From Minisyncoccota bacterium (lineage in GTDB: Bacteria; Patescibacteriota; Minisyncoccia; UBA6257; JAGOQP01), in contig JBAZTS010000001.1 in NCBI GenBank assembly GCA_041661795.1, positions 39,459-103,458 of the forward strand: DNA of 64,000 nt, read 5' to 3'. Positions 8,575 to 48,699 of the stretch are shown one piece after another (the first letter of the stretch is position 1; the number at the start of each line of letters is the position of its first letter). A program made the translations under genes and the position numbers. The notes below the pieces were generated by a model. It was not told the origin of the DNA and did not search any database. It saw only the letters and a list, made by a program, of their open reading frames with translations.

Positions 8575-8654
8575 ATAAATAGTAGCTAGTGTATAGTAGT
8601 TAGTATATAGGGTTGAGACATACTAATCAATATTCTAATACCAAATACTAATTC
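8575..8654. repeat. TAGTA-rich imperfect palindromic intergenic repeat upstream of serS (TAGTATATAGG...CCTATATACTA)
   Basis: Shares TAGTAGCTAGTATTTGGTAG-like core with intergenic regions at 41208-41283 and 48614-48699. Confidence 0.4.
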
Positions 8655-12869: not shown

Positions 12870-15800
12870 TTACATCTGTCCTTGACTTTGGTTGCCGTTC
12901 TTATTCTTTCTGTTTTTATACCAAGAATTAGCGGACTGCCAGATTCCATAAAGCGCCAAAAGAATTAAGAGAAGAACCAACCAACTTACCCAATTGTTTC
13001 CGCTTCCTAAACTTAAAATGTTAGCCATAAGCAAGCTACCGGCTGCCGGAGGATTTGGAAGAGCGCTCAATTCTGCCTGTTCTAACACATTGGCTTGTAA
13101 ATTATCTCCTCCAATTTCAGGATTTGGAGTTTCTGTTGGAGCTCCCGGAGTTAAAATTCCTTCTGGAGCCGGAATATTTCCACCTGCGCCTTCACCAGCT
13201 TCACCTCCAGTTGGTTCTATTACTCCTTGAGGAGCCAGAACAACTATTGGGGCAGGAACAAATTCTTTAGTGGTAACCACGTGCTCTTCAACTCCAAAAG
13301 CCAGTGAGCCGTGAGATACAGTCCTGTAGTAGTAAGTCGTACTCGGTTCAAGTCCTGTTATGGTTATAAAGTGAGCCAACACCGGAACGTCAACATTATA
13401 TTCAGGTGTAGTTCTGGCATATCCGTATTTTGGAGGAGTTCCGGAATTATCATTCAAATCAAGAGTATGAACCTCTCCTTCTCTAGCGTAAATTACTTGG
13501 CTGGTTGATTCATAACTGGTGTTCCAAGCAATACTAATAGAAGTGTCGGTAATTTCTCCAATTGATTCATTGGATACGGAAAGTTCCGGTCTTGTGTAAC
13601 CACCTCCGCCACCGCCACCTCCACCACCGCCTCCACCTTGCTGTTGTTGCTGAGCAATGTCGTCGTTAGTAATCGTACAAGTTTTATGCTGTCCAACGGT
13701 AATAGGACCGGAACAATTTTCACTCATTTGCGTAGTATACAGAGAATCAGCATCTTCAGTTACCGTGTAGTTTGTGGCACCGCGGAAATAGACCACGGTT
13801 CCTTCTTCATCCCCCAAGAATGTGGTAGGAGCAAATAAATGATCCAGAATCACTGTCGCATATGCCTTTGTGGTTCCAAAGAAGCTAAGAACACTGTTTA
13901 CAATTTTATTCAAAACAGTAAGTTCTTGCTGTGGAACATTTACATGAATAGTAAATTCTCTTGCGGTTTTTGTGCCTCCGTTATCATTTATAACGTGTTT
14001 TATCACCGTAATTGATGTCTGGTTTGTATTGTTGAAAGTACAGGTCACGGAATCGGCATTTCCAATGACTATATTTTCTCCATTCGGAATATCACTACCA
14101 ACACCTCTGTCGCCAGACAGACAAGACACGCCGGTTAAACTCCATCCTTCTAATGGATTCTCAGTCACATCATATGAACCGGCATTCAACATAATAATTT
14201 CAGTCTGAGCAGACCCTCCAATTGTCGTGACTTGAGGTGATATTTGAGTTCCGCTTATTGAGAAATTAAATGTTCCATCATCACCATCGGTATGTTTGAC
14301 GATAGTGAGTTCCGCCGGCTCTGCTGTGTTGGTAATCGAACAAGTTGCATTTTGTCCAAGATCCAAATGAATATAGCTTCCGTCGTTCTGAACACCTTCA
14401 CAATTCCATCCTCCAGGAGTGTATCCGGAAGGTCCTCCTGATTCAGAAAGAGTATAGGAACCGACATTTACACTTACATTCGTAACAGCTTCGCTTCCTG
14501 TAACACCTGAGATATCTGTCGGACCAGTGGCTGAAAGCGTCCATTGATCTGCGGTTGCAGACCCGACACCTTCTCTATTATTAACATTTTTTATAAGAGT
14601 GAGTTTTGGAGCAATATCATCGTTAGTGATCGTACAAACCCATGCCTGTTGGTCATCTACGTGAATAATTCCATCTGTATTATTTTGTTGTCCGCTCACA
14701 CAACTTATTCCGGTATTTTCATATCCAAGAGAAGTTGGATCATCTTCACTTACTGTGTAATCTCCCGGAGCAAGAAAGTTGGCTTGACCGCTCGAAACAC
14801 TACTCGGCTCGATTCCAACAGAAGTAATTTTTAGAGAAAAACTGCTTTGTGTAAGAGTTCCGCCGTTATCATTTATAACATTTTTTATAACCGTTATTGC
14901 TCCTTGTCCTACGGGAATATCACTGTTAGTAATGGTACAGCTTTCTGTTTTGTTGCTTGCAACCCCGATAATTGTACATGAACCTTCTTGAGAATCGGAA
15001 AATGAACCTGCATAACCTTCACGGCTTGGTTCAGACACCGCATAAGCGCCCGGATCAACATCAACGGTATTTTGGCCAGTCATCGCTCCTTCTTCTGCGG
15101 TAAATGGAGTTAATGGACCATCATTTAGATTAAACGAGAAATCGTTGGCATCCGCAGTACCAATGCCGTGATTTATGACGTTTTTTGTAATAACAAGATG
15201 ACCTGTTTTTTGCTGATTGGTAATTGTTATGTCGGTGTTTGTTCCGGCACCTACGGTAATCTGCGCTCCGTCTCCATTGTTCTGATTTTCATCAATACTG
15301 TACGACACAAATGTATAATCGTCATCCGGATTTTCTGTAATCGTGTATGTCTGACCGGGATCAAGATTAGAGTAAATGTCCGCTGAATTTTCTCCCACTC
15401 CGTGTTGGTTGGAGCCGTTAATCATTACATAGAACGTGTGTGAGTCGTTCGCATCACCTCCAGTCGGACCTACGACATCTTTATAAATTGTTATGGAACC
15501 GCGTTGAGTATTGTCAAAAACGCAGTGTATTTCTTCACCCGGATCAAGATCTATATAAGCAGTCATACCGTCTGTGGTAGTGCCCTGGTCTGGATCAATA
15601 CAAACCAAACTACTCATATCCCATCCGGTTTTTGTAAGTTCCGCAACGGTATATGGTCCTGGAGCCAGCCAAGCGCTGATATCCGTTTCCATATTATTTA
15701 GGAAGAAATTGGATTGATAACTTGCTGAAAATTCAAATTCAGTAGTTGTGTCATCGTTAGGAGTAGTTTGTTTTTCAATAACAATCTTCCCCATCTGTTG

Positions 15801-17141
15801 GTTTCCAAAATCCTTTGCTGTTTCATTATTTCCACCGCTGATTGTTGTATCGTGTCCGAATATTGAACCATCACAAGATGGTCCGGAACCGGGAGATATT
15901 TGTCTCCAACCGGATTGTAACGCTTCACAAACTTTGTAATTTCCATTTCCTAAACCGAGGAAAGAATAATTTCCGTTTAAATCAGTAGAAGTAGAAGTCG
16001 TTGCCGTTCCGGATAAGTTCATTGTCCATCCGGGGAGTCCGACTTCATCTTGGTCTTTTATTCCATTGCCGTTCAAGTCATTATACTTCTGACCAGAGAT
16101 AGAACCAGAACTTCCAATAACAATATCGTCTACTCTAAAGTTTTCATCTGTTTGACTTGCATTAGTTCTTAATCTAAGTGAAAAAGTTGAATTATTAACA
16201 GGAGCAGGAAAATTAAAATTCACTTGAGAACTCCATGATAAATTATTTAATGAGTGAGAATTTATATTTGTCCATGATGGACTTCCGCTTGTACAATCTC
16301 CCAAGCGATATTCCACAACTCCATAATCATTGGATTCAGCATCCGAATCTCCTTTCCAAAAATAACTTAGAGCAAAATTAGTATCATCAGAAGCGTCAAA
16401 GGTTCTACAAATTGAACCAGTATCTTCTATTTTTACAAATTTATTAGAAACATTGCTGTCTTGAGTTTGATCTTCTCCACTGGTAGTACCAGTAATTTGA
16501 GCTGGCTCACTCTCAACCCACCCTGAAACAGTAGCTGAATTAGTAGTACCAAATGTTTCTGTAAATGGAATTGGAGTTGGAGGAGTATAGTAAACTTTTA
16601 CTCGTAAATGATCTAGCCACGCAGAATCTCCTCCAGAAGTGGCATCCATTTGTACTCTAAAATTACTGCTATTTATTATACCCGTAGTCCAAGAACTATA
16701 TCCCCAATCATTTGTACTATTTCCAAGTGTTATAATACTATCACTAGTACTTAAGGCCCCAGTATTTTGTGGAGATGTCCAGTTGGTACCATTATTCCAT
16801 GACAAAGAAACATCCCAAGTTCTACTCGAACCACTATCTCTACGTCCTTCAACGCCAACTTCAATCCCATTAATAATAGAACCGGCGGGAATACTAAATC
16901 CAAAATTATAATAAGAGTTTCTATCACTACTTGAATTATATTCAGCTCTGCTATCGTTTGATGAATAAGCGTTTGCGGGACTACCAACAGAAGAACCGCC
17001 AAAATCAACATTACTTATTGGTGAATTCCATCCGCTATCCGCAGCCCAAGCTATTCCCGTAGGAAAAGCGATTCCGAAGACAAGAGTGATAATAGTTACA
17101 TAAGCCGACAACTGACCGAAAAACTTTTTTGTGTGATTCAT
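12870..17141 (-). CDS. giant cell-surface protein (1423 aa), signal peptide, multiple Cna-B/prealbumin-like and FN3-like repeat domains, polyQ/polyG linker, C-terminal TM anchor with basic tail
   Basis: N-terminal signal peptide; repeated (I/L)T(V/I)IKNVINDNGGT and LTLIKNVNN segments; QQQQGGGGGGGGGGGGG run; C-terminal ...LPNPPAAG-hydrophobic helix-KNRKNK. Confidence 0.8.
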   Translation of the reverse strand: MNHTKKFFGQLSAYVTIITLVFGIAFPTGIAWAADSGWNSPISNVDFGGSSVGSPANAYSSNDSRAEYNSSSDRNSYYNFGFSIPAGSIINGIEVGVEGRRDSGSSRTWDVSLSWNNGTNWTSPQNTGALSTSDSIITLGNSTNDWGYSSWTTGIINSSNFRVQMDATSGGDSAWLDHLRVKVYYTPPTPIPFTETFGTTNSATVSGWVESEPAQITGTTSGEDQTQDSNVSNKFVKIEDTGSICRTFDASDDTNFALSYFWKGDSDAESNDYGVVEYRLGDCTSGSPSWTNINSHSLNNLSWSSQVNFNFPAPVNNSTFSLRLRTNASQTDENFRVDDIVIGSSGSISGQKYNDLNGNGIKDQDEVGLPGWTMNLSGTATTSTSTDLNGNYSFLGLGNGNYKVCEALQSGWRQISPGSGPSCDGSIFGHDTTISGGNNETAKDFGNQQMGKIVIEKQTTPNDDTTTEFEFSASYQSNFFLNNMETDISAWLAPGPYTVAELTKTGWDMSSLVCIDPDQGTTTDGMTAYIDLDPGEEIHCVFDNTQRGSITIYKDVVGPTGGDANDSHTFYVMINGSNQHGVGENSADIYSNLDPGQTYTITENPDDDYTFVSYSIDENQNNGDGAQITVGAGTNTDITITNQQKTGHLVITKNVINHGIGTADANDFSFNLNDGPLTPFTAEEGAMTGQNTVDVDPGAYAVSEPSREGYAGSFSDSQEGSCTIIGVASNKTESCTITNSDIPVGQGAITVIKNVINDNGGTLTQSSFSLKITSVGIEPSSVSSGQANFLAPGDYTVSEDDPTSLGYENTGISCVSGQQNNTDGIIHVDDQQAWVCTITNDDIAPKLTLIKNVNNREGVGSATADQWTLSATGPTDISGVTGSEAVTNVSVNVGSYTLSESGGPSGYTPGGWNCEGVQNDGSYIHLDLGQNATCSITNTAEPAELTIVKHTDGDDGTFNFSISGTQISPQVTTIGGSAQTEIIMLNAGSYDVTENPLEGWSLTGVSCLSGDRGVGSDIPNGENIVIGNADSVTCTFNNTNQTSITVIKHVINDNGGTKTAREFTIHVNVPQQELTVLNKIVNSVLSFFGTTKAYATVILDHLFAPTTFLGDEEGTVVYFRGATNYTVTEDADSLYTTQMSENCSGPITVGQHKTCTITNDDIAQQQQQGGGGGGGGGGGGGYTRPELSVSNESIGEITDTSISIAWNTSYESTSQVIYAREGEVHTLDLNDNSGTPPKYGYARTTPEYNVDVPVLAHFITITGLEPSTTYYYRTVSHGSLAFGVEEHVVTTKEFVPAPIVVLAPQGVIEPTGGEAGEGAGGNIPAPEGILTPGAPTETPNPEIGGDNLQANVLEQAELSALPNPPAAGSLLMANILSLGSGNNWVSWLVLLLILLALYGIWQSANSWYKNRKNKNGNQSQGQM

Positions 17142-17336
17142 ATTTGTTTTTTTATCTTAATTTTTAATAATAAAAAACGAACAAGTTAAATAACCTGTTC
17201 GGTGTTTAAAAAGACGACCACTGCCTTGTTTTATTGTTATTTATGTTTTTGTAAACCAATCCGGCCTTTAATTAATAGACCTCATTTACCCAAAAACTAT
17301 ACAATACAACCTCAGATAAAGTCAAGTGGATAACAA

Positions 17337-17751: not shown

Positions 17752-18195
17752 TTAAGATTTAGAGGCCTTTTTAACTGATTTTTTGGTTTTTATAACCGGA
17801 ACTGTTTTTACTAACGGTTTGACATTTGCCATAGCTTCTACCGCCTTAATGAGTCGGTCCATCTTTACATTCAACATCTCTAACTGATTCTTTACCTCAT
17901 TATTATCGGTTCTAACGGGAGCTGAAAATCTGTCATCTCTAAAATCTCTATTGCTTCCTGTCTCTTTTTTACCTCCAAAACAGGCGTTGCAATACACCGG
18001 TTTACCGCTACTTGGTCTAAAAGGCACTTCACATGGCTTTTTACATTCATCGCAAACCGCTTGGTGCATAGTGACTGGTCCACGATCTCTGCCTCCACCA
18101 AATCCACCTCTGCCTCCACTTCGTCCACCAAATCCTCCACCACGTCCCCCACCACCACCGAAACGTTTTCCACCGCCTTGTCTAAAATCTCCCAT
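17752..18195 (-). CDS. Gly/Arg-rich (RGG-box) zinc-ribbon protein, CxxC-x17-CxxC, probable RNA-binding
   Basis: N-terminal GGGRGGGFGGRSGGRGGFGGGRDRG, then CDECKKPCEVPFRPSSGKPVYCNAC, Lys-rich C-terminus. Confidence 0.55.
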   Translation of the reverse strand: MGDFRQGGGKRFGGGGGRGGGFGGRSGGRGGFGGGRDRGPVTMHQAVCDECKKPCEVPFRPSSGKPVYCNACFGGKKETGSNRDFRDDRFSAPVRTDNNEVKNQLEMLNVKMDRLIKAVEAMANVKPLVKTVPVIKTKKSVKKASKS

Positions 18196-25306: not shown

Positions 25307-25338
25307 ATTTAGTAATTTAATATTAATTATCGTTATTT

Positions 25339-25381
25339 CAATTATATCAAAGTTCTAACATCTTATCCAGATATAAAAAAC
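25339..25381 (-). promoter_or_regulatory. conserved promoter cassette copy A (GATGTTAGAAC-N5-TGATATAAT)
   Basis: 43-bp near-identical copy of 26960-27002; contains a perfect extended -10 TGATATAAT on the minus strand. Confidence 0.5.
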
Positions 25382-25418: not shown

Positions 25419-26954
25419 TTATTGCATTTGTGCTTTTAATGCGACAATTTGAGTTATTAAAGAATCTCGTGTTGCAGTATCAATGGTATTGTTTAATTGA
25501 TTCTGTAAAACACTGATTTGCTTTGATATGGCGTTAATTTTATCTCGGATTGCTTGTACTTGCGCTTCTAAAGTAGTAATTTGCGTTGTTAAATAATCTC
25601 GCGTTGCAGTATCGGTAGTATTATTTAATTTATAATATAAGGCGCTAATTTGCATCAATAAAGCGTTTATTTTTTCTTGATTAGTTGATGAAGCAGAAAT
25701 TACTGGGGTTTGACTCTGGGAGTGTAAGCCAAGACCGTTGGTATTTATTGATGTAGCTGAAATTACTGTGGTAGTAGTGTCGGAAGCGCCTTGAAGTATT
25801 TTCACTTGCGTTTTTAATGCGATAATTTGCGCTATCAAAGAATCTCGTGTTGCAGTATCAATAGTATTATTTAATTGATTCTGTAAGATACTAATTTGCG
25901 TCTGTATATTAGCTATTTTATCTTGAGTGGCAGACGTAGTCACAATTGTACCGTATCCTCCTCCGCTCGTTGTCGTAACAGGAGAAGATACCGAAATAGT
26001 AGGAGTGGTGACCTGAGTATTATTTTGTCCCGCTATAATACTAAATTCCGTATCGCTGAAATCGCCAATATAAGAAATCACATCACAAGAAGCATAAGAA
26101 CCCTCAACATAAATTGATATTGTATAATTGTTCCCCAGGCCAGGCCATGATTGAATGTTACTTGGAATCGTATACGTATAACTTTCCAAATTTGTGGTAA
26201 CTCCTATTAATTGACTGCTATTCACCCCCGTTTTAGTTGTCGGCGCGTCATATCCCTTGTTTAAATAAACCAACAAAGCTTTATTTCCGACAATATCTTT
26301 CGCAGAATATTTTATAGTATACGTTTCGCCAACCTGCCACTGCTCCCCTCCGTTCGGAGAAAGAATCTTAATAACAGTAGGAGTGAATGGAATTTGAACG
26401 CCCACTGGGGTTTTGCATGGCGTGGCTGGGGTTGTGGAAGAAAAATTTGATATCGATGTGATTGGTGTAGTAGATATAGCTGGTGTGGCTGAAGTTGCCG
26501 AAGTTGCTGGTATTCCTGTTCCGGAAGAAGGAGTGGCTGGTGTAGCGGGAATAGCGGCCACAAGAACATTTAATTTCTCTTGAGTTTTAGGTCCAACCAT
26601 TCCTACGGACTCGATACCGTTCTGCTCCTGAAACTTTTTAACAGCTACTTGAGTAAGTGGTCCATAATATCCAGTAATCAAGCCGTTGGGATAGCTACCT
26701 GTAAAGTTTTTTAAAAACTCCTGTAGTTTTTTTACATCGTCTCCAGTAGCTCCTTGTGCCAGGGCTCTACTAAACTTAAGTTCAATTTTTACAGTTTGAA
26801 CCTCAATTTGAAGATCTGCTATCTGTGATTGTAATGATTGTATCTGGGTTTGAAGTTGTTTAATTAAAGCTTGTAAATCAGCCGTTGAGTCAGTTGTTTG
26901 AGCGAACGTTAATAATGGAAACATTAGAGCTAGAACAAATAAATATTTTTTCAT
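25419..26954 (-). CDS. secreted coiled-coil protein with PG_binding_1 peptidoglycan-binding domain and three internal about 35-aa repeats
   Basis: Signal peptide; GATGDDVKKLQEFLK...GYYGPLTQVAVKKFQ (PG-binding); repeats LQNQLNNTIDTATRDSLIAQIIALKTQ x3 with corresponding about 75-bp DNA direct repeats. Confidence 0.6.
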   Translation of the reverse strand: MKKYLFVLALMFPLLTFAQTTDSTADLQALIKQLQTQIQSLQSQIADLQIEVQTVKIELKFSRALAQGATGDDVKKLQEFLKNFTGSYPNGLITGYYGPLTQVAVKKFQEQNGIESVGMVGPKTQEKLNVLVAAIPATPATPSSGTGIPATSATSATPAISTTPITSISNFSSTTPATPCKTPVGVQIPFTPTVIKILSPNGGEQWQVGETYTIKYSAKDIVGNKALLVYLNKGYDAPTTKTGVNSSQLIGVTTNLESYTYTIPSNIQSWPGLGNNYTISIYVEGSYASCDVISYIGDFSDTEFSIIAGQNNTQVTTPTISVSSPVTTTSGGGYGTIVTTSATQDKIANIQTQISILQNQLNNTIDTATRDSLIAQIIALKTQVKILQGASDTTTTVISATSINTNGLGLHSQSQTPVISASSTNQEKINALLMQISALYYKLNNTTDTATRDYLTTQITTLEAQVQAIRDKINAISKQISVLQNQLNNTIDTATRDSLITQIVALKAQMQ

Positions 26955-27002
26955 ATTTTCAATTATATCAAAATTCTAACATCCTATCCAGATATAAAAA
27001 AC
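26955..27002 (-). promoter_or_regulatory. conserved promoter cassette copy B; extended -10 TGATATAAT 7 nt from the ATG (leaderless)
   Basis: Minus strand reads GATGTTAGAATTTTGATATAATTGAAAAT-ATG. Confidence 0.5.
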
Positions 27003-27641: not shown

Positions 27642-27690
27642 GATCACCTCCTCTCAACAAAATAGCACATATAGTGCTATTGGTCAATCT
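27642..27690 (-). promoter_or_regulatory. promoter with palindromic operator upstream of the HicB-like gene
   Basis: Minus strand: TTGACC-AATAGCACTATATGTGCTATT-TTG...; 8-bp perfect inverted repeat AATAGCAC/GTGCTATT occupies the spacer. Confidence 0.45.
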
Positions 27691-27795
27691 TTTGCTCCGA
27701 CTGATGGACAATATTAGAACTTGTTTTTACAACTCCTGCATTATTTACCCAAAATAAATTTTATATTATTCATACTTATTGATAGAATATAGTTA

Positions 27796-28560
27796 ATGAC
27801 TAAAAAAATAGAGTGGTTAAAAATTTTAGGTCTCCTTGGCTATGTCTTGCTTGCTTGTATATTTATACTTATTTTCCGACCACCATATATTCTGACGATA
27901 ATAATAGTTTTGGTCCCACCAAGTATTGTTAATTTTTTATGGCTTAAAAATTCTAAAAAAAGAGTGTTGATATTTTCTATCGTTACCGCCCTGCTTTTTG
28001 GACCACCCATCGAACTCGCTCTTCGCCTCGCAAATGCGTGGGATGTTCAATCATTCTTTTTCCGCCCCCTCGGAATTATACCTTTAGAAAATATGCTTTT
28101 TGCTTTTTTAAATTTTTTCTGGGTAATAAGCTTTTATGAATATTTTATAGACCGATCCAAAGAGCAAAAGATATCAAGAAAATTCAAATTCCTTGTTGGA
28201 CTATATATTCTCTTATTAGTAATTGTATTCGGCACATTTATACACAATCCTACTTTAATTGCTATTAATTATGCAGTTGCTTCTATACCTATACTTATAA
28301 TCCCGTCCCTGATAATTTATTTTAAAAATCCAAAACTTCTTAAAAAAATAGTAATACCTATTCTTTTTTTCGCAATAGTATTTTTTGTCTATGAAGTAGT
28401 GGCATTAATAATTGGTAACTGGTGGTGGCCCGGTGAATATATTTATCCCGTAACAATATTTGGTAAAATATTTCCCCTTGACGACGCATTTATCTGGTAT
28501 TTCCTCTCAACTGCTACATTAATTGGTGGCTACGAATTTTTTGTTGATGATTTCAACTAA
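27796..28560 (+). CDS. lycopene cyclase domain (CrtYcd-like) polytopic membrane protein
   Basis: Two homologous halves, each with hPLE(N/D)xhF motif (IIPLENMLFAF; KIFPLDDAFIWYF), 7-8 TM helices; extended -10 TGATAGAAT 7 nt before the ATG. Confidence 0.45.
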   Translation: MTKKIEWLKILGLLGYVLLACIFILIFRPPYILTIIIVLVPPSIVNFLWLKNSKKRVLIFSIVTALLFGPPIELALRLANAWDVQSFFFRPLGIIPLENMLFAFLNFFWVISFYEYFIDRSKEQKISRKFKFLVGLYILLLVIVFGTFIHNPTLIAINYAVASIPILIIPSLIIYFKNPKLLKKIVIPILFFAIVFFVYEVVALIIGNWWWPGEYIYPVTIFGKIFPLDDAFIWYFLSTATLIGGYEFFVDDFN

Positions 28561-28590
28561 AAAATAACCAGTATTTAATCTGATTATTTT
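28558..28590 (-). terminator. bidirectional hairpin terminator (conserved module) between convergent genes
   Basis: AATAACCAG-tatttaat-CTGATTATT plus T-run; homologous to the module at 31795-31832. Confidence 0.5.
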
Positions 28591-28618
28591 CAAAGCTCCG
28601 ACTGATAGACGACATTAC

Positions 28619-29539
28619 TCAATTATTGCCAAGGACTTCAAAGGTTTCTGGATTGTAATAAATGCGATCATATATTTCAAATGGTTTTCCGATCAAGCCA
28701 TCTCTTTCAATTGGTACGTCTAGGTCCCATCTGTCCCAATAAGAAATGTAAGAACCATTTTTATCCTCCCCAGCGGAGATGACATAATTTTTCATAATCC
28801 ATTCGGCAAATCCGACACTGACAAACCAATCATCCCATTCGTAGATAGATTTTCCTTTATTCCTATGAGCGCCATCTACTAATCTTTTAATTGTTTCTGG
28901 GTTAAATTTAGATAATTTTTCTGAAAAACTGTTAATTTTGTAATAATAGATATCATCCTTGCTTTTGCTTGGTTTATAGTCAGAAATTCCGAATGTGTCG
29001 TTTCTTTGGGGTAAACCCAAGTAAAGACGCCAGGCGTCCTCGCGTCCGCCTTCCGCGTTCTCTGATATAGCTCTTCCCTCAATGAGATTCTTTAGGATAT
29101 CAGCGCCATGCGGTTTATAACCAAATGGATGAACTCCTCTATGCAGCACATTGCTCATGATCGGCTTATATGTTGCCGCTTGTTCGGAAGTAATTCCTTT
29201 TGTCGCCATCTCAATTTTTGCACGCTGAACCATCTCATCGAATGTCTCCGGTTTCTTATGAGGATTATCACTGGAAACATTAAGAGTCAACCCAGTAAGT
29301 ATAACGATACGAACGTAGGCGAATATCGCTTCCCTAAACTTGCGACCCAAAGACATGATCATTTTTTTCTTTGCTGGATCTAGTTCTTGGGAAATTTTAG
29401 CTTCAACGTCTTTATCTATGCTATCAATTTCTTCCACAGAAAGACCAACGAGATTCTTGATCTCGTCGGATACTACTTCCACTTCCGGTCTTTCGGCCAC
29501 CTTATTTGTTGGGCTTTTTATTTCTGGTGTTTCTCTCAT
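28619..29539 (-). CDS. hypothetical cytoplasmic protein
   Basis: 306-aa ORF, Trp/Tyr-rich C-terminal half, no recognisable domain. Confidence 0.5.
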   Translation of the reverse strand: MRETPEIKSPTNKVAERPEVEVVSDEIKNLVGLSVEEIDSIDKDVEAKISQELDPAKKKMIMSLGRKFREAIFAYVRIVILTGLTLNVSSDNPHKKPETFDEMVQRAKIEMATKGITSEQAATYKPIMSNVLHRGVHPFGYKPHGADILKNLIEGRAISENAEGGREDAWRLYLGLPQRNDTFGISDYKPSKSKDDIYYYKINSFSEKLSKFNPETIKRLVDGAHRNKGKSIYEWDDWFVSVGFAEWIMKNYVISAGEDKNGSYISYWDRWDLDVPIERDGLIGKPFEIYDRIYYNPETFEVLGNN

Positions 29540-29906
29540 CGTTAATAGTGATAATCTCGTCGTTATTTAGTTGATTAAGTTTTGCGACAAAAGAACGATA
29601 AAGTTCTTTAATTACCTTTTCTTTTTGCTTTAAGTCATTTTTTATTTCTTCGCTTAACGGCATAAATTAATTTAATCATAATTTATTTCCAGAGTCCATA
29701 TTGAGTTCAACCAAAAAGTCGGTTTTATCTGGTTATTTTTCAATGCTCCTCGGGTCCTACTTCGCACAAGGCTACGTACGGACACTGTGGAAACATTATT
29801 ATCTATTTTTTAAATACCTTTTTATATCTATAATTTTGCCACCAACCTCTGTATAACAATTTTTGCATAGAATGACGGGGCCATTTGATGCTTAGTAAAA
29901 ATTTGT

Positions 29907-30563
29907 CTACCCAGTTTTAACACCATCTCCCCTTAATTCATCTTCTACTTGTTTTAGGAATTTAATTAGAAACAAGTGCCGTTTCTTAGCTATTTTTTTA
30001 CCAGTTCCAGTCCGCATCAGATCATAGATTTTTAGTAATCTCAAAAAAAACAGATCTACATCAAATTCCGTGTGCGGAGGAATAGATTTTCTTCTAAACG
30101 GATCTATAGGATGATAGAAACCTCTATTCATTTGTCCACCAGAAGAAAAAGTTCTCAAGATAGAAATGGCTCCAGTTGATTCGATTCCATCGGCATCCTG
30201 CAACACTTTCCCTTCAATTGTTTTTGAAATAATTCCCTTTCTAAATGAACACTGCTGAATACAAGTTTTAACTAAGTCAATTTTAGTTTTTGGATACCAA
30301 GACAATGAAGATAGGACTTGTTCTGCCACCTTAGCACTTTCATCTGTTTCATTTAGGCTGTTGCTGGTATTTTTTTGATAAACAATAACATCATGAAAAA
30401 TCGCCGCAGGGATAACAACTTCTAAATCAGCTTTTTCTTTCTTTCCGATTTTTTCAGCAAGATGTAAAACACGTAAAACGTGATTGAAGTCATGAGAGGG
30501 ATCATTCTTGATTTGTTTTTCTTGAGCTATTTTGATTAATTGATCTTTGTACTTTTTTTGCAT
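29907..30563 (-). CDS. HD domain phosphohydrolase
   Basis: H...HD metal motif (FNHVLRVLHLA ... AAIFHDV) and downstream Asp. Confidence 0.7.
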   Translation of the reverse strand: MQKKYKDQLIKIAQEKQIKNDPSHDFNHVLRVLHLAEKIGKKEKADLEVVIPAAIFHDVIVYQKNTSNSLNETDESAKVAEQVLSSLSWYPKTKIDLVKTCIQQCSFRKGIISKTIEGKVLQDADGIESTGAISILRTFSSGGQMNRGFYHPIDPFRRKSIPPHTEFDVDLFFLRLLKIYDLMRTGTGKKIAKKRHLFLIKFLKQVEDELRGDGVKTG

Positions 30564-30648
30564 ATATCAATGTTCTGATTTTCTCTAAAAAGTTAGTATC
30601 TAGTTTATTTGCTCCGACTGATAGACGACATTAGAACCTGTTTATAAA

Positions 30649-31224
30649 CTAAAGAATATTAATACCAAACTTCTTAAGTTCTACGGATAATGAGAAAATG
30701 GGAAGGCCAATAATATTAAAATAATCTCCTTCTATTCTTTCGATAAATAAAGACGCTATGCCCTGCATAGCATAACCTCCACCTTTATCCAATGGTTCTC
30801 CAGAAGCAACATAAGCGTTTATTTCATAATCAGAAAGATTTTTGAAATAAACTTTTGTTTCTACTGATTTAGAAACTTGTTTATTGGTTTTGGTATCAAT
30901 TATAGCAAAACCGGTTATAACAGAATGCACTCTACCACTAAGTTTACTCAACATGGCCTTAGCTCGTTCTTCTGTTTTTGGTTTACCAAGAAATTCTCCA
31001 TCAAGAACACAAAATGTATCCGCTGCGATGATGATTGAATCTTTATGTTTCAAAGCTACATCTTTTGCCTTACCCAAAGACAAATATTCAGCTAATTTAC
31101 TTGGCTCCATTTTTAAGCTCATATCTTCTTGATAATTACTTGGATCTACTTCAAATTGTAAACCAACTTGTGAAAGTAATTCCTTTCTTCTTGGAGATGA
31201 TGATGCTAAAACTATTTTTTTCAT
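30649..31224 (-). CDS. maf: Maf-like nucleoside triphosphate pyrophosphatase (septum formation protein Maf)
   Basis: N-terminal LASSSPRRKELL, conserved AADTF and catalytic K/E positions; 191 aa. Confidence 0.85.
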   Translation of the reverse strand: MKKIVLASSSPRRKELLSQVGLQFEVDPSNYQEDMSLKMEPSKLAEYLSLGKAKDVALKHKDSIIIAADTFCVLDGEFLGKPKTEERAKAMLSKLSGRVHSVITGFAIIDTKTNKQVSKSVETKVYFKNLSDYEINAYVASGEPLDKGGGYAMQGIASLFIERIEGDYFNIIGLPIFSLSVELKKFGINIL

Positions 31225-31278
31225 ATTTTTATTCTATCAAAAAATCGCCACAAAGACGATTCCTTGAAAACATCCGCT
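31225..31278 (-). promoter_or_regulatory. conserved 5' cassette copy G (AGCGGATGTTTTCAAGGAATCGTCTTTGTGGCGATTTTTTGATAGAAT) upstream of maf
   Basis: 54/55 nt identical to 32372-32426; extended -10 TGATAGAAT 6 nt from the ATG; contains imperfect palindrome TCAAgGAATCG...CGATTtTTTGA. Confidence 0.5.
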
Positions 31279-31370
31279 CCCTGCCTACCAGCAGGCAGGC
31301 GACTAATAGACGACATTACTTGTCCGCCCGTAGCTTTATGCGAAGGAGGAGAACTTGTCTGAGATAAGTA

Positions 31371-31763
31371 TTATTGGAGTTTAAACTCTTCTTCTTTGTA
31401 TCGTTTAACCAATTTTTGATATTTATTTTTTGTGTCTTCACTAGAAAGAAGAAAAGCGCGGTCTCTTATTTCACCTTTTAAATTAGGTCTATTTTCTCCG
31501 AATTGGCTCTCAGAAAAATCAATTTCCTCACCGTTGGGTAAGCAATTCCAGTAATGATTACCAGACCAGCCAGTTCCCTCAAGAGATGCCCATAATATCT
31601 CTCCTTTTAAAATATCTTGAGCTAAAAGGGTTATTACTGCACAATGGCCCTGGAAAGGATTGTTAGGATTCCATTCTTTTCTAGATTGATGAGTATCTGC
31701 AGAACATATTTTCGGAAATATTTGTTTAAGAATTTTTATTTCTTCTGCGAATTCCATGAACAA
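31371..31763 (-). CDS. hypothetical protein
   Basis: 130 aa, Cys/His/Trp-containing (CSADTHQ...GHCAV...), promoter GTTAGAAC-N5-TAAAAT 6 nt upstream. Confidence 0.45.
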   Translation of the reverse strand: MFMEFAEEIKILKQIFPKICSADTHQSRKEWNPNNPFQGHCAVITLLAQDILKGEILWASLEGTGWSGNHYWNCLPNGEEIDFSESQFGENRPNLKGEIRDRAFLLSSEDTKNKYQKLVKRYKEEEFKLQ

Positions 31764-31794
31764 ATTTTACCAGAGTTCTAACGTCCAGCATAGG

Positions 31795-31832
31795 TATAAA
31801 AATAACCAGTGTTATGTCTGGTTATTTTCAAA
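31795..31832 (-). terminator. hairpin terminator downstream of the GNAT gene (conserved module)
   Basis: AATAACCAG-tgttatgt-CTGGTTATT 9-bp perfect stem plus TTTTCAAAG; preceded by GCTCCG...GATGTTAGAAAC. Confidence 0.55.
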
Positions 31833-31864
31833 GCTCCGCATGCTGAACGATGTTAGAAACTGTC

Positions 31865-32371
31865 TTAGGCAATAGCTAATTTACTTTTCTTCCAAGCACT
31901 CTTCATAAGCTCCATCATAATAACTTTTGAAAGATATTTATTATCTTTATAAAGTTTTATTCCCTTCTTATGAAAACCGAGCTTTTTATATGTACTAATA
32001 GCATTCTTGTTTTCTGGCCTGACTTCAAGATAAGCTTTTTTATAATTTAACTTTACAAACCCCATTTGAAGTATTTTTCTAAGAGCCCAAGTTCCAACCC
32101 CTTTTCCTCGATGCTTCCGTTCTCCTATAATTATGGGAGTCCTGAAAACGGTCTTACTTTTTCTCCTAACCATAATGTGTCCAATCGGTTTTGTGTCAGC
32201 TAAAATAATAAATTGAGGATTTTTTGACTTCAATAATTTTGGAAAGAATTTAGCAATTTTGACAGGATCTTCTTTTCTACCGCTTGTCATACTTATTAAA
32301 TAAGGATCAGTCCACCACTTAATAAAGTATTTTTTATCGGAAAGTTTTGGTGGTCGTAAATTTAAGTTCAT
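31865..32371 (-). CDS. GNAT family N-acetyltransferase
   Basis: Motif A RGKGVGTWALRKILQMGF (Q/RxxGxG/A), 168 aa. Confidence 0.75.
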   Translation of the reverse strand: MNLNLRPPKLSDKKYFIKWWTDPYLISMTSGRKEDPVKIAKFFPKLLKSKNPQFIILADTKPIGHIMVRRKSKTVFRTPIIIGERKHRGKGVGTWALRKILQMGFVKLNYKKAYLEVRPENKNAISTYKKLGFHKKGIKLYKDNKYLSKVIMMELMKSAWKKSKLAIA

Positions 32372-32426
32372 ATTTCTATTCTATCAAAAAACCGCCACAA
32401 AGACGATTCCTTGAAAACATCCGCTT
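32372..32426 (-). promoter_or_regulatory. conserved 5' cassette copy I upstream of the GNAT gene
   Basis: Near-identical to 31225-31278; extended -10 TGATAGAAT 6 nt from the ATG. Confidence 0.5.
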
Positions 32427-32496
32427 GGGCTGTTAGACCAAGTCATAATTTTATTCTTGAAATATTCAATTTTTTTTGTTAATCTCTTAAACGTAT

Positions 32497-32571
32497 TCCC
32501 CGGTAGCTCAATGGTAGAGCGGATCCCTGTTAAGGATAAGGTTGTAGGTTCGAGTCCTACCCGGGGAGCCA
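32497..32571 (+). tRNA. tRNA-Asn (anticodon GTT), CCA encoded
   Basis: Cloverleaf: acceptor TCCCCGG/CCGGGGA, D-arm GCTC-AATGGTA-GAGC, anticodon loop CTGTTAA, T-arm GTAGG-TTCGAGT-CCTAC, discriminator G plus CCA. Confidence 0.9.
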
Positions 32572-32577
32572 ATATAA

Positions 32578-32606
32578 AAAATACGTCAATACGGCGTATT
32601 TTTTAT
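32578..32606 (+). terminator. hairpin plus T-tract terminator downstream of tRNA-Asn
   Basis: AAAATACG-tcaatacgg-CGTATTTTTT. Confidence 0.45.
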
Positions 32607-39964: not shown

Positions 39965-39981
39965 AAAATACTATTATTTTG

Positions 39982-40054
39982 TCCGCCCACCAGGATTCGA
40001 ACCTGGGACCCTCTCCTTAAAAGGGAGTTGCTCTACCAACTGAGCTATGGGCGG
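39982..40054 (-). tRNA. tRNA-Lys (anticodon TTT), CCA not encoded
   Basis: Minus strand CCGCCCA-TA-GCTC-AGTTGGT-AGAGC...CTCC-CTTTTAA-GGAG...CCAGG-TTCGAAT-CCTGG-TGGGCGG-A. Confidence 0.85.
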
Positions 40055-40076: not shown

Positions 40077-41207
40077 TTACTCTTCCTTTTCAAGTTCTTT
40101 GGCCAGTTCCTTGGCTATCTTTTGGGCCTGGTGGTTTATTTTTCTAGGCGTCTTAAGAGAGATTTTGACTATTAGATCCCCTCTTTTGGATAACCCAAAA
40201 GAACCGCCTGATTTTTTATACATACCCTCTCCTTTGGCTATGATTTCTCCACCGATAACAAAGCTCTGAGGAATTTCTATTTTAGTCTTTTCTCCGCTTA
40301 TAGTTTCTATCTCTATTTTATTCTCCAATAAAATATCGGATACAGAAACAGTTTTTTTAATAATTAAATTATCACCATCCAATTCAAAATTTTTATCAGG
40401 CAATATGTTTATTTTAATATAAAGATTACCACCTCCAACACCTCTTAATCCGGCCTCCCCTTCTCCATCAATTTTTATCATCTGCCCATTATATATTCCC
40501 GGCTTTATTTCAACGATAATCTTTTTCTGAGACATAATTCTTCCGGCTCCGGAGCATTCACTGCAAACTTTATTTGGTGCCTCACCAGTTCCAAAACATT
40601 CCTGACATTCCCTAACCTGAACAAAATTCCCAAAAAAAGACCTGCGCTCTTCTTTTATTTTTCCAGAACCATTGCAATTTTGACAAGTTTTTGTTCCGGC
40701 TGACTTATCATATCCGGCGCCAAAGCATTTTTTACAAGAAACAAATGTCTTAAAAGATATTTCTTTTTTCATTCCAAAAAACGCCTCTTTTAGAGATATG
40801 TCTAATATTGCCTGGATATCATTTCCCTTTGTTTTAGCTCCTGATTTTCTGTCTCCACCAAAAAAACTTCCAAATATATCCCCGATATCTCCGAAATCAT
40901 CGAGGTCATTAAAAGAAAAATTATTAAAGTCAAAGCCACTACCGGAGGAAAAACCTCCAAAAGGACCCCCTGCTCCAAACGGATCGCCACCCATCCCCGA
41001 GTCAGAGAATCCTTTTCCAAATCTATCATATTGGCTTCTTTTCTTTTTATCTGAAAGAACCTGATAGGCCTCGTTTATCTCCTTAAACTTCTTTTCATCA
41101 CCCCCTTGTTTGTCAGGGTGATATTTATGAGCCAATTTCCTGAAGGCCTTTTTTATTTCATCTTCAGATGAGTTTTTGGTAATTCCTAAAATTTCGTAGT
41201 AATCCAT
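40077..41207 (-). CDS. dnaJ: chaperone DnaJ (Hsp40)
   Basis: J-domain MDYYEILGI...HPD, G/F region, four CxxCxGxG zinc-finger repeats; the ORF-track start (41249) extends into the upstream repeat, true start likely Met at 41207. Confidence 0.9.
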
Positions 41208-41283
41208 AAAATTAGTAGCTAGTATTTGGTAGCTCGTATTCAGTATCATACAAGATACACGCTACAAACTACAAGATACAAAA

Positions 41284-42345
41284 TTACGGCAGAGATATTG
41301 TTTCTTTGCTTCTGTTTTCAAAAACTACCGCTCCAAAACCGATAGCTAAAAGTACTTGATAAATTACAAGACCAAAAAACGAAGCGACTATTCTAATTAA
41401 AGGGGAAACCGCTTGGACAGCTAAGAAAAGAAGAACCGCCAACACCGTTAAAACTGAGGATTTAGACGACCCACCCAAAGAATTAAATTTATTAATTATT
41501 CCCTGATAAATAGCTAAAGAAAGTTTGATATTGGGGTCTAAATTAATTCCCAACATGGAAGAAAATTGTTTTTGATAAGCGTCGGTGCTTTTTTTTATTA
41601 AATCATTTTTTATGGCAGGAGGAATACTCTGGTCAACAAGTTTAGCGGTAATTTCGTTTAAAGATAGAGAAAAATCAACGTCTCCTAAGAACTTACCTAT
41701 AATCCCAGATATTCCCCTAAAACTTGATTCAAAAACGTTTTGAGGAAGAAAAGGATTATTATTATCCAAAGGACGCGTAAGAAAACTGTTATAAACCAAA
41801 AAAGAGGAAAAAATAGCTATTCCGATTATGACTCTGGACATTATTGGTTTTACTATTCTAAAAAATTTTATTTTTAAACATCCGTCTATTTCATTTCTTC
41901 CCATAATGACCGAAACCATTAAAAACCCAGCCAGAATTAATCCGGCTATTGCTATTCTCTGATTTAGATCCGGTAAGAAAACAACAAAAATAAAAACAGC
42001 GGAAAGAAAAGCTATGAGCGTCATAAAACTATTTCTTGACACAAACAGCGAAGTAACGGAAAAAAAAGATAAAAAAATTAGTAGAAAAATAAGAAGGAAA
42101 AAACTGTCACCTGTCATATTATTTGACAGTCCAAAGAGAACTTTTTTAAGAAAAAAACCAAAAGCAAGAGCCGAAACGCAGGTAAACAATCCCAATAAAG
42201 ATGCTTTCCAATAGGAAAATCTACCCTCATAAACACTAAAAGATTCTTCCTTGGGAGGAGATGAGTTTTCAATCATAAGAATAGGGGTTAGGGTAAAGAG
42301 GTTAGGGTATATAAAATAGAAATTAGGAATCAGAATTTTTATCAC
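41284..42345 (-). CDS. polytopic membrane protein of unknown function inserted between dnaK and dnaJ
   Basis: 353 aa, at least 8 TM helices, overlaps the dnaK stop by 23 nt. Confidence 0.45.
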
Positions 42346-47263: not shown

Positions 47264-48613
47264 ATGCCCATAGCTAAACTTCCTCCACAAGACACAGATT
47301 CGGAGAAATCAGTTTTAGGTTCTCTGATGATAGATAAAAATGCCATCACTAAAGTGGCCGATGTTTTGTCTTATAAAGATTTTTATTCCACCGCTCATCA
47401 AAAGATTTATCAGGCCGTTACCGATCTTTTTAATAAAAACGAACCGATAGATATTTTGAGCGTCACTAATGTTTTAAAAAATAAAAAACATTTGAATGAT
47501 ATCGGAGGATCTTCATATTTGGCCGACCTTATAAATACAGTTCCCTCTTCGGCCCATATCGCCCACTATGCCAAGATAATCAGAGAAAAAAGAATATTAA
47601 GAGATTTAGTCACTATATCGGCCGAAATCAGCGAATCGGTATTTGAAAAACAAGGAGCGGTAGAAAATTTGATAGACCAGATAGAACAGAAAATATTTTC
47701 CGTTTCAGTACAATCGGCCAATAAAAATTTTGTCCACGTCAAAGATGAGTTAAAAGCCGCTTACGAACGCATAGAAAAACTCCACCAAGGAGAAAAGGGC
47801 TTAAGAGGAGTAACCACTGGTTTTGACGATTTAGACAATTATCTTTCCGGATTTCAGGAATCGGATCTAATTATTTTGGGAGCCAGACCTTCTTTAGGAA
47901 AAACCACATTGGCTCTGGACATGGCAAGAGGCGCCGCTTCCAAAGGAGGTGTCTCGGTTGGAATATTCTCAATAGAAATGTCGAAGGATCAGATAGTTGA
48001 CCGTCTTATCGCTTCAGAAGCTCAAGTTCCGTTGTGGAAATTGAGAACCGGAAGATTGAGTACCGAAGAAGAATTTGAGCTCATACAAGGGGCCTTAGAC
48101 CGACTTTCTAAAATGTCAATCTACATAGACGACTCTCCTTCTCCCAATGTTATGCAGATACGCTCCATTGCCAGACGCCTTCAATCAGAGCATGGCTTAG
48201 GACTTCTAATTATTGACTATGTCCAGCTGATACAACCGCTCACCTCTTCTGATAATGTCGTGCAACAATTTACCGAAATCAGCCATCAATTAAAGGCCCT
48301 GGCTAAAGAATTAAATATTCCGGTTTTAGCCATTTCCCAGTTAAATAGATCGGTTGACCAAAGAGAAATAAAAGTCCCCCGACTTTCCGACCTTAGAGAA
48401 ACCGGGTCTTGGGAACAAGACGCTGATGTGGTTTTATTAATTTACAGAAAAGACAGAGACAGATTAGAACCTTCTTTGGAAGAAGACAATACGGCATCAA
48501 TTATTATCGCCAAACACAGAAACGGCCCAATAGGAACCGTTGATCTAAAGTTTGACCAAGAGAAAGTGACATTCAGAGCCATAGAGAAAAAAAGAACGGT
48601 GGAGGAATTCTAG
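47264..48613 (+). CDS. dnaB: replicative DNA helicase DnaB
   Basis: N-terminal DnaB domain (LPPQDTDSEKSVLGSLM), RecA-like core with Walker A GARPSLGKT and Walker B LLIIDYVQL. Confidence 0.9.
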   Translation: MPIAKLPPQDTDSEKSVLGSLMIDKNAITKVADVLSYKDFYSTAHQKIYQAVTDLFNKNEPIDILSVTNVLKNKKHLNDIGGSSYLADLINTVPSSAHIAHYAKIIREKRILRDLVTISAEISESVFEKQGAVENLIDQIEQKIFSVSVQSANKNFVHVKDELKAAYERIEKLHQGEKGLRGVTTGFDDLDNYLSGFQESDLIILGARPSLGKTTLALDMARGAASKGGVSVGIFSIEMSKDQIVDRLIASEAQVPLWKLRTGRLSTEEEFELIQGALDRLSKMSIYIDDSPSPNVMQIRSIARRLQSEHGLGLLIIDYVQLIQPLTSSDNVVQQFTEISHQLKALAKELNIPVLAISQLNRSVDQREIKVPRLSDLRETGSWEQDADVVLLIYRKDRDRLEPSLEEDNTASIIIAKHRNGPIGTVDLKFDQEKVTFRAIEKKRTVEEF

Positions 48614-48699
48614 AACTAGTAGATAGTATTTGGTAGTTAGTATTTAGTAAAAACTTCCGAATCCTATATACTATATACAATATACCAACTACTAATTTC

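Follow-up and report, generated by a model that had tools for sequence, protein, structure and literature searches.

A clustered repeat resembling the 3' end of tRNA-Asn in an accessory gene array of a Paceibacterota bacterium

Very little is known about how bacteria of the candidate phyla radiation (CPR), with their tiny genomes, gain genes. The window analysed here comprises 64,000 nucleotides of a CPR bacterium, Candidatus Paceibacterota (GenBank assembly GCA_041661795.1, contig JBAZTS010000001.1, positions 39,459 to 103,458), and carries between 27.7 and 32.5 kb an array of small accessory-type genes interspersed with copies of a short intergenic repeat, hereafter the unit. The array ends beside an intact tRNA-Asn(GTT) gene. 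The Obg protein encoded in the window is 100% identical to that of an NCBI metagenome-assembled genome annotated as Candidatus Paceibacterota. Here, we report that the unit is, by alignment, a partial tRNA-Asn gene, and we consider site-specific recombination as the probable origin of its copies, which would then be the cores of attachment (att) sites.

The repeat array

The copies in the array and the neighbouring tRNA gene are as follows (positions in the window, strand, description).

27691-27729, minus: unit C, partial tRNA-Asn 3' end GTTCTAATATTGTCCATCAGTCGGAGC, found by profile and mismatch search
28594-28621, minus: unit D, abutting the TGA stop codon of the 306-aa gene, a profile match
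29745-29803, minus: unit E, GC-rich variant, then a decayed T1 terminator module (described below) at about 29717-29744
30608-30646, minus: unit F, the canonical copy, just 3' of the maf stop codon
31276-31326, minus: unit G, downstream of YunG, a full unit split by a 20-nt GC hairpin
31830-31866, minus: unit H, variant GTTTCTAACATCGTTCAGCATGCGGAGC, directly 3' of the GNAT stop codon
32423-32452, minus: unit I, degenerate, beside the upstream flank of tRNA-Asn, not significant alone
32497-32571, plus: tRNA-Asn(GTT), intact, 45 nt from the last unit, the proposed source and target of the repeat

The initial annotation had described a dispersed 27-bp repeat family in this region. Exact, mismatch and profile searches confirm that the family is real, locally dense, oriented, intergenic and often placed at gene 3' ends, and the positions first assigned to its copies are right within 1-2 nt. 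In the 64-kb window the 27-mer GCTCCGACTGATAGACGACATTAGAAC has an exact match at 30611-30637 and a match with three mismatches at 27694-27720, shuffles of the window giving a chance expectation of 0 matches, and an nhmmer profile of the copies adds 28594-28623, 31300-31319 and 31832-31864. The profile revealed no further unit elsewhere in the window or in 20 kb of extra flanks from the same genome, and the five clear and two degenerate copies between 27.7 and 32.5 kb all fall within a stretch of about 5 kb in the 84 kb searched. The repeat is not part of a general terminator consensus, the finding that the initial annotation had named as its refutation.

All units are oriented in the sense of the flanking minus-strand genes, on whose strand they read GTTCTAATGTCGTCTATCAGTCGGAGC, and on the gene-sense strand the unit can be written as ACAGGTTCTAAT[GTCGT]CTATCAGTCGGAGC(C)A. 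Of 19 units considered, 7 abut or overlap the upstream stop codon. Three copies had been noted immediately downstream of minus-strand stop codons, and the distances bear this out: 0 nt for the 306-aa gene, about 2-12 nt for maf and about 0-5 nt for the GNAT gene. Unit C occupies the space between divergent genes, where it precedes the promoter of a small minus-strand gene rich in GC. Units D and G have a 3-nt deletion (TCT) at the head in common. The GC-rich relative recognized earlier corresponds to unit E, which keeps only the two unit ends (TAATGT...GGAGC) along with a linker and hairpin of the shared type. The acceptor-like end of this unit, ACCCGAGGAGCA, comes nearer to the native tRNA-Asn end ACCCGGGGAGCCA. 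The hairpin inside unit G is CCTGCCTGCTGGTAGGCAGG, and a GC-rich insertion of about 32 nt precedes this unit. Such GC-rich insertions in the otherwise AT-rich units G and E (31281-31299, about 31327-31358 and 29750-29795) include one perfect hairpin, and similar GC-rich stretches lie between genes of the related contig L044 (about 3790-3830).

When 185,579 species-representative genomes (the GTDB representatives, a set to which the source genome apparently does not belong) were scanned with a 19-mer, the only matches were single chance ones, with flanks that were not conserved, and a viral scan gave chance matches only. The array was found identical across contigs of three other assemblies from the same population, making four assemblies in all. 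A 4.1-kb metagenome contig, L030, holds three true unit copies spaced 500-730 nt apart, one of which equals unit F at 100% over about 30 nt, even though the csp region common to both sequences is only 78% identical.

Homology of the units to tRNA genes

By alignment, the unit is a partial tRNA-Asn gene. It corresponds to about the last 30 nt of tRNA-Asn(GTT) and a few flanking bases, in diverged form and with a 5-nt insertion in the T-arm region, and the match runs from the T-arm to the CCA end: AGGTTC(T/G)A[AT]GTC[GT]CTA.C.G[T].GGAGC(C)AATA. When unit F and the L030 copy L30a were aligned to tRNA-Asn, the score was reached by 0-14 of 1000-2000 shuffles. In these alignments tRNA-Asn outscores tRNA-Glu, tRNA-Gln and the UUA tRNA, and the best scores come from the tRNA-Asn allele of strain L034. 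Similarly, copy d of L044 aligned to the tRNA-Asn of contig L043 with a score of 30, which none of 500 shuffles reached, and the acceptor part is identical.

A further relative, L037 (82% Obg identity), has a unit at 17104-17142, TGGCTGGGGGCATTGGACGACGTTCGAACC, that is a weak profile match. It has the GACGAC..TT.GAACC part in common with the window units, including the GACGAC insertion, and its first 9 nt match exactly, in direct orientation, the terminal bases of a tRNA-Gln gene at a distance of 2.6 kb, an alignment that 0 of 2000 shuffles equalled. A gene for an HTH_17 (excisionase-type) protein lies between this unit and tRNA-Gln. At the level of sequence, this relative thus shows the acceptor part of the unit co-varying with the local tRNA.

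The strain difference at the tRNA-Asn 3' end

Strain L034, of the same population, is 99.98% identical to the window up to position 32574, the tRNA-Asn 3' end, beyond which it continues into an unrelated, GC-richer island.

L034 1-8650: island
L034 8654-8729: tRNA-Asn

The sole mismatches are three, all in the 3' acceptor strand of the tRNA (CGCCGGA in L034 vs CCGGGGA in the window), where the L034 allele is unit-like and the substitutions should break three of the seven acceptor pairs. The strain polymorphism therefore sits exactly at the tRNA-Asn 3' end and comes with a hybrid tRNA end, which is what would be left by a crossover within the last 10 nt or so. The island holds two diverged units, direct relative to tRNA-Asn. 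Presence or absence between strains was seen at this tRNA 3' end, and the array modules are identical in all four assemblies.

The L034 island has repeat families of its own, a tRNA-T-arm-like sequence TTAGTTCGAGTCCCA in three copies and the motifs GTAAAACTATAGGG and CGTTACACTATAG, the latter two resembling promoters of phage single-subunit RNA polymerases. It also encodes a 435-aa open reading frame (ORF) with an HExxH motif and no Pfam match. Proteins of the GC-rich window segment at 27.0-27.65 kb had no similarity to those of the island.

Terminator and promoter modules and their genes

The units are associated with recurrent terminators (T1 and T2) and promoters (P2), listed here for the window and for related contigs.

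28560-28593: T1 hairpin and T-run (AATAATCAG..CTGGTTATTTTTT) with TTTGAAAAT linker, found by repeat comparison and folding
31775-31831: T1 and an inverted partial unit (GTTCTAACGTCCAGCATAGG), the inverted half bearing the YunG promoter
31220-31278, minus: T2 terminator and P2 promoter module (AATCGTCTTTGTGGCGATTTTTTGATAGAATAAAAATATG), before maf
32367-32425, minus: second copy of the T2-P2 module, before the GNAT gene, 97% identical to 31220-31278
32577-32606, plus: terminator after tRNA-Asn (AAAAAATACGTCAATACGGCGTATTTTTT), of the same build as the T2 hairpins
25327-25381, minus: module A, a T2 hairpin like the tRNA terminator, an inverted partial unit GATGTTAGAAC and the promoter TGGATA-17-TATAAT, before the 290-aa gene
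26948-27002, minus: module B, of the same build as module A, before the 511-aa gene
L044 60-105, 825-870, 2975-3020 and 3830-3875: T2-P2 modules
L043 about 7010-7050 and about 14470-14520: T2-P2 modules
L045 about 4870-4915: T2-P2 module

The T1 module consists of TTTGAAAAT, a AATAACCAG/CTGGTTATT hairpin and a T-run. That two copies of the repeat share such a linker, hairpin and T-run had been suggested, and the comparison of 28560-28617 with 31798-31855 supports it with 79% identity over 58 nt. Judged by its sequence and fold, T1 at 28560-28593, on which the 254-aa and 306-aa genes converge, serves them as a bidirectional terminator. Across its terminator, unit H forms with its inverted partner an 86-nt imperfect palindrome (-38.2 kcal/mol, z -7.9). 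The observation that the GTTAGAAC core recurs in promoters was also correct: it occurs, inverted, in the three promoter modules at 25327-25381, 26948-27002 and 31775-31795.

Read in gene orientation, the order is a unit, the linker, a hairpin and T-run, an extended -10 promoter (TTTTTTGRTAGAAT), 6-9 nt, ATG, one gene, its stop codon and the next unit. Six consecutive inter-unit segments of the window have one main gene each, namely a 254-aa membrane protein, a 306-aa protein (with a 53-aa ORF), HD, Maf, YunG and GNAT. Taken together, the cargo consists of small accessory-type genes, including GNAT, YunG, Maf, HD, MBL-fold, DUF7670 and NUDIX.

Three genera carry the unit-terminator-promoter module, and the genes that follow it differ. 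The conserved T2-P2 pattern of the module is a hairpin AATCGCC..GGCGATT followed by T6, GRTAGAAT, 6-9 nt and ATG, and the genes behind it encode DUF7670, an MBL-fold protein, a methyltransferase and a cupin in L044, NUDIX and Gmad2 in L043, and an MFS transporter in L045. Because the ATG lies so near the -10 box, the mRNAs may be leaderless. A contig of 1174 nt from another sample (L047, equal to window 31249-32422) holds the GNAT and YunG genes only, and its ends overlap by 27 nt. This most likely reflects an assembly broken at the 59-nt repeat, but the contig may also represent a circular two-gene molecule. Fragments of tRNA genes of this kind can mislead tRNA annotation and break assemblies.

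The csp locus and more distant relatives

Outside the array, the window has two decayed units near csp, and in the more distant relative L043 an intact tRNA gene takes the corresponding place.

17259-17297 (approximate), minus: decayed unit downstream of csp, orthologous to an intact L030 copy
17760-17790 (approximate), minus: truncated decayed unit upstream of the csp promoter, by orthology with units in L030 and L044, and also orthologous to the intact tRNA-Asn 3' end in L043
L043 7113-7692: intron-split tRNA-Asn(GTT), the intron bearing an HNH endonuclease ORF

The more distant relatives have Obg proteins 74-76% identical to that of the window. L044 holds five units in 5.4 kb and L043 a single one, all in gene sense and several touching the upstream stop codon. 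Directly upstream of csp, L043 has an intact tRNA-Asn(GTT) that is split in its anticodon loop by a group I intron of about 500 nt (Rfam 44.8 bits, E 5.5e-10); spliced in silico, it was recognized as tRNA-Asn by ARAGORN. At the same place, before the csp promoter and leader, L044 and L030 carry a unit with a homologous downstream flank and the window a truncated relic. Comparison of these sequences shows a unit or an intact tRNA placed orthologously upstream of csp in four lineages. The ancestral order therefore appears to have been tRNA-Asn then csp, with a later insertion of DNA separating the tRNA body from its now displaced 3' end. A T2-P2-gene module of L043 likewise runs divergently from the tRNA, and for this reason the inverted layout may be older than the window genome.

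Origin of the units

The homology to tRNA-Asn and the strain polymorphism at its 3' end make it more likely than not that the units are att cores derived from the tRNA-Asn 3' end and left by site-specific recombination. A mobile element would carry an attP that mimics the 3' end of the tRNA gene, and with each recombination between attP and the tRNA gene the shared core would gain one further copy. The stretch at 27.7-32.5 kb would then be a stack of small self-contained modules bounded by cores, each made up of a terminator in the style of the tRNA's, a promoter with an extended -10 box, a single cargo gene and, right 3' of its stop codon, a core. The conserved terminators and promoters would represent arms that travel beside the core. 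For an element rebuilding the end of a tRNA there would be reason to bring along both a tRNA terminator and a promoter for its cargo. We infer the work of a trans-acting integrase in building the array, past or present mobility of single modules, and the order of events given here.

Several observations weigh against this origin. No integrase, recombinase or transposase was found among the roughly 70 ORFs of the window, in its 20 kb of flanks, in the 8.6 kb of island visible in L034 or in the genes tabulated for the related loci. The array lies on the 5' side of tRNA-Asn with its units inverted relative to the tRNA and unit I against the tRNA promoter. Simple integration at tRNA-Asn does not predict such an inverted array; to arrive at it, an inversion has to be assumed, or else an excision between cores of opposite orientation followed by re-insertion. 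Direct repeats on the 3' side of the tRNA were found only for the two L034 island units and for the L037 unit with tRNA-Gln; the window array lacks this arrangement. Most cargo genes have a host-like base composition, and exact-protein look-ups of Maf, GNAT and HD found a constant arrangement, with no gain or loss of a single module in any strain. Given the 5-nt insertion, a working T-arm cannot be rebuilt from the units. The long retention of a unit at one place upstream of csp also suggests a function in situ. Finally, an ungapped alignment of nine copies is conserved with period 3 on the antisense strand, which an att site alone would not predict.

This periodicity amounts to mean pairwise differences of 0.33, 0.03 and 0.35 at codon positions 1, 2 and 3, respectively, a contrast reached by 16 of 5000 column shuffles. 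A 12-codon pattern, (W/L)LR..(D/N)(D/N)(I/V)RT(C/Y), is kept in all 14 copies, and the period is seen in units of window 27691-32452, L030, L034, L037, L043 and L044. Codon changes are synonymous (CGA/CGG/CGC/CGT, AGA/AGG/CGA, GAC/GAT), replacements are conservative, in the L044 and L043 copies too, and the 3-nt deletion common to units D and G is in frame. The antisense frames span 16-60 codons and their start is not conserved (TTG, TGG, AAG or CCG at the same place). The antisense peptide has no family match in Pfam, NCBIfam or PHROGs, and a parent gene was found neither by an alignment-based protein database search, which was limited to shared 5-mers, nor by tblastn against phages or a search for the back-translated pattern in viral contigs. 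An attP lying inside a small ORF would explain the pattern.

It is possible, if doubtful, that the Paceibacterota carry an integron-like capture system that is not built on attC and consists of circular one-gene cassettes, a trans-acting recombinase and a micro-ORF across attP. The proposed cassette would combine a tRNA-Asn-like att core, a tRNA-style terminator, an extended -10 promoter and a cargo gene, and the recombinase would place cassettes into tRNA-Asn or into cores already present and reshuffle them at these sites. Such a system would account for the one-gene spacing, the arms conserved in three genera and the period-3 conservation. If modules do move singly, they would represent a second, independent invention of the gene-cassette principle, and the unit would provide a simple sequence handle for flexible genes in metagenome-assembled CPR genomes. 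More generally, the att-core origin would make tRNA-Asn a recombination hot spot in one Paceibacterota lineage, with accessory genes held in uniform modules bounded by tRNA-derived cores.

Alternative explanations

The placement of units 0-12 nt past stop codons in four genomes is also what would be seen if a tRNA-derived, non-autonomous mobile element, in the manner of miniature inverted-repeat transposable elements (MITEs) or short interspersed nuclear elements (SINEs), copied itself just 3' of stop codons, the genes between copies being residents rather than cargo. Such an element would agree with the L044 units, which sit among core genes (Obg, csp) with no tRNA within 13 kb, with identical copies at non-orthologous sites in two species, and with the existence of decayed copies; the inverted partner of unit H, and more weakly those of F and the L044 copy a, would resemble terminal inverted repeats. 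Against a MITE, no target-site duplication was seen at any copy, most copies are without an inverted partner and only H is palindromic. Copy number is low and clustered, and no transposase was found. The fit of the acceptor part to the local tRNA (Asn vs Gln) and the strain difference exactly at the tRNA end are in keeping with recombination at tRNA genes, not transposition, and we consider a mobile element of this kind unlikely.

Somewhat harder to sustain is a functional signal in the 3' untranslated or intergenic region, bound as RNA or DNA in the spirit of repetitive extragenic palindromes (REPs), bacterial interspersed mosaic elements (BIMEs) or enterobacterial repetitive intergenic consensus (ERIC) sequences and controlling, for accessory genes, the ending of transcripts, the stability of the mRNA or transcription from the antisense strand. 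The constant sense orientation between stop codon and terminator speaks for a signal, as does an identity between species that is higher in the units than in their flanks; two conserved 7-mers (GTTCTAA and TCGGAGC) can pair, with G-U, on the sense RNA only, and a -10-like box often follows the unit on the antisense strand. The hairpin is nevertheless weak, broken in D and G and without consistent covariation. A folding check had been proposed with the initial annotation, and it revealed no conserved internal hairpin in the 27-mer: six of eight copies fold no better than shuffles, and Rfam, which recognizes only two tRNAs in the window, does not match the units. A REP hairpin or structured RNA was rejected on these grounds, and a signal would leave the tRNA homology, the hybrid tRNA end of L034 and the period-3 pattern unaccounted for. 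Other candidates were set aside as well. None of a dif/Xer site, a Ter site, a DNA uptake sequence or a sigma-54 or extracytoplasmic function (ECF) promoter fitted when judged by eye against consensus sequences, and an antisense sigma-70 promoter, TTGCTC-17-TAGAAC, is weak and destroyed in copy D.

The antisense periodicity could be taken at face value, the units being relics or live copies of a tiny antisense protein gene of the pattern (W/L)LR-hydrophobic-hydrophobic-D/N-D/N-I/V-R-T-C/Y-hydrophobic and their tRNA likeness secondary. The almost invariant second codon positions, the synonymous changes and the in-frame deletion in D and G are of the kind expected from a gene, and the island and L037 copies are protein-like for 20-25 codons further, L037 having a called 45-aa gene there. 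Against this, first and third positions vary to the same extent, a pattern not usual in coding sequence; the start is not conserved, open frames reach just 16-60 codons, neither a family match nor a homologue was retrieved, and the left border of the homology is the CCA end of the tRNA. A gene origin is for these reasons quite improbable.

A decayed classical integron array, or cluster of attC sites lacking integrase (CALIN), with the units as attC sites, was suggested by the TTCTAAC...GTTAGAA boxes of unit H and is hardly credible: unrelated small genes do run in one direction with the same site closely after each, GNAT-type cargo is typical of integron cassettes, and the outer boxes TTCTAAC and GTTAGAA of unit H are similar to the R'' and R' boxes of the attC consensus, but no IntI gene was found, the site is homologous to tRNA-Asn, both arms occur at one of about eight junctions (unit H only), and the cassettes hold promoters and terminators of their own instead of being promoterless.

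Comparison with known systems

The att-core origin finds its closest parallel in tRNA-seeded genomic islands such as the tycheposons of Prochlorococcus, in which scattered partial tRNAs are traces of serial, older integrations (bioRxiv 10.1101/2020.12.28.424599). As in those islands, the repeats are copied from a tRNA's 3' part, the region has an intact tRNA gene at its border, copies are stacked with the older ones decayed, the cargo is of accessory type and the strain difference lies exactly at the tRNA end. The window differs in having no visible integrase and, 5' of the tRNA, a main array of inverted units, and further in its one gene per repeat, 5-nt insertion, period-3 conservation and CPR host (Paceibacterota). 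Homology and the strain difference at the tRNA justify filing the units with the att-type partial tRNAs of genomic islands, and we make this assignment with moderate confidence because the window array lacks direct orientation and an integrase, two defining features. A dedicated DNA-binding protein had been one suggestion for the role of the repeat, and this part stands, a recombinase being the likeliest reader. The other parts, an RNA-binding site or a REP/BIME-like element, give way to a partial tRNA-Asn placed with the attachment-site repeats of tRNA-linked islands.

A report on SSV-type ('suicidal') archaeal integrases describes an attP inside the integrase's own ORF, which is split on integration (PMC7253208). 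The likeness would be an att core that resembles a tRNA and at the same time is constrained in the manner of coding sequence; the window differs in that its ORF is tiny (about 30-45 codons) and not an integrase, its host is a bacterium and the overlap is deduced from substitution patterns only.

The unit is neither a REP/BIME element, nor a classical integron site, nor a general terminator consensus, and the array has an integron-like flavour. With REP/BIME and ERIC repeats it has in common that short repeats are dispersed in intergenic, transcribed 3' regions near terminators. It differs in the absence of a conserved palindrome or hairpin, in its low and clustered copy number (5-7 copies in 84 kb), in its tRNA origin and in the absence of a REP-associated tyrosine transposase (RAYT). 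Integron cassettes are alike on paper, with co-oriented unrelated small genes, a site a few bases after each and cassettes without a recombinase, but the site in the window is tRNA-derived and mostly one-armed, each module has its own terminator and promoter, and there is no IntI gene and no attI.

Other observations in the window

The window has some further features. A tRNA gene at 39981-40054 (minus strand, Rfam 70.6 bits) has the anticodon TTA according to ARAGORN and would decode the UAA stop codon; it is possibly a suppressor tRNA. Read with the standard bacterial code, the window's genes appear normal.

The segment 27054-27650 is GC-richer than the window (about 44-50% vs 35%) and has two small minus-strand ORFs with strong Shine-Dalgarno sites. 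The one of 56 aa appears HicB-antitoxin-like by eye, and gene callers dispute the coding strand (125 aa on the minus vs 112 aa on the plus strand). Within the 511-aa PG_binding/coiled-coil gene, three internal repeats of about 136 nt (69-74% identity) occupy 25426-25939. Finally, a separate 42-nt repeat (AATCATA.AATAGTAGCTAGT.T..GTAG.TAGTAT) is found near gene starts or ends at 8569-8610, 41202-41243, 42271-42312 and 48606-48647.

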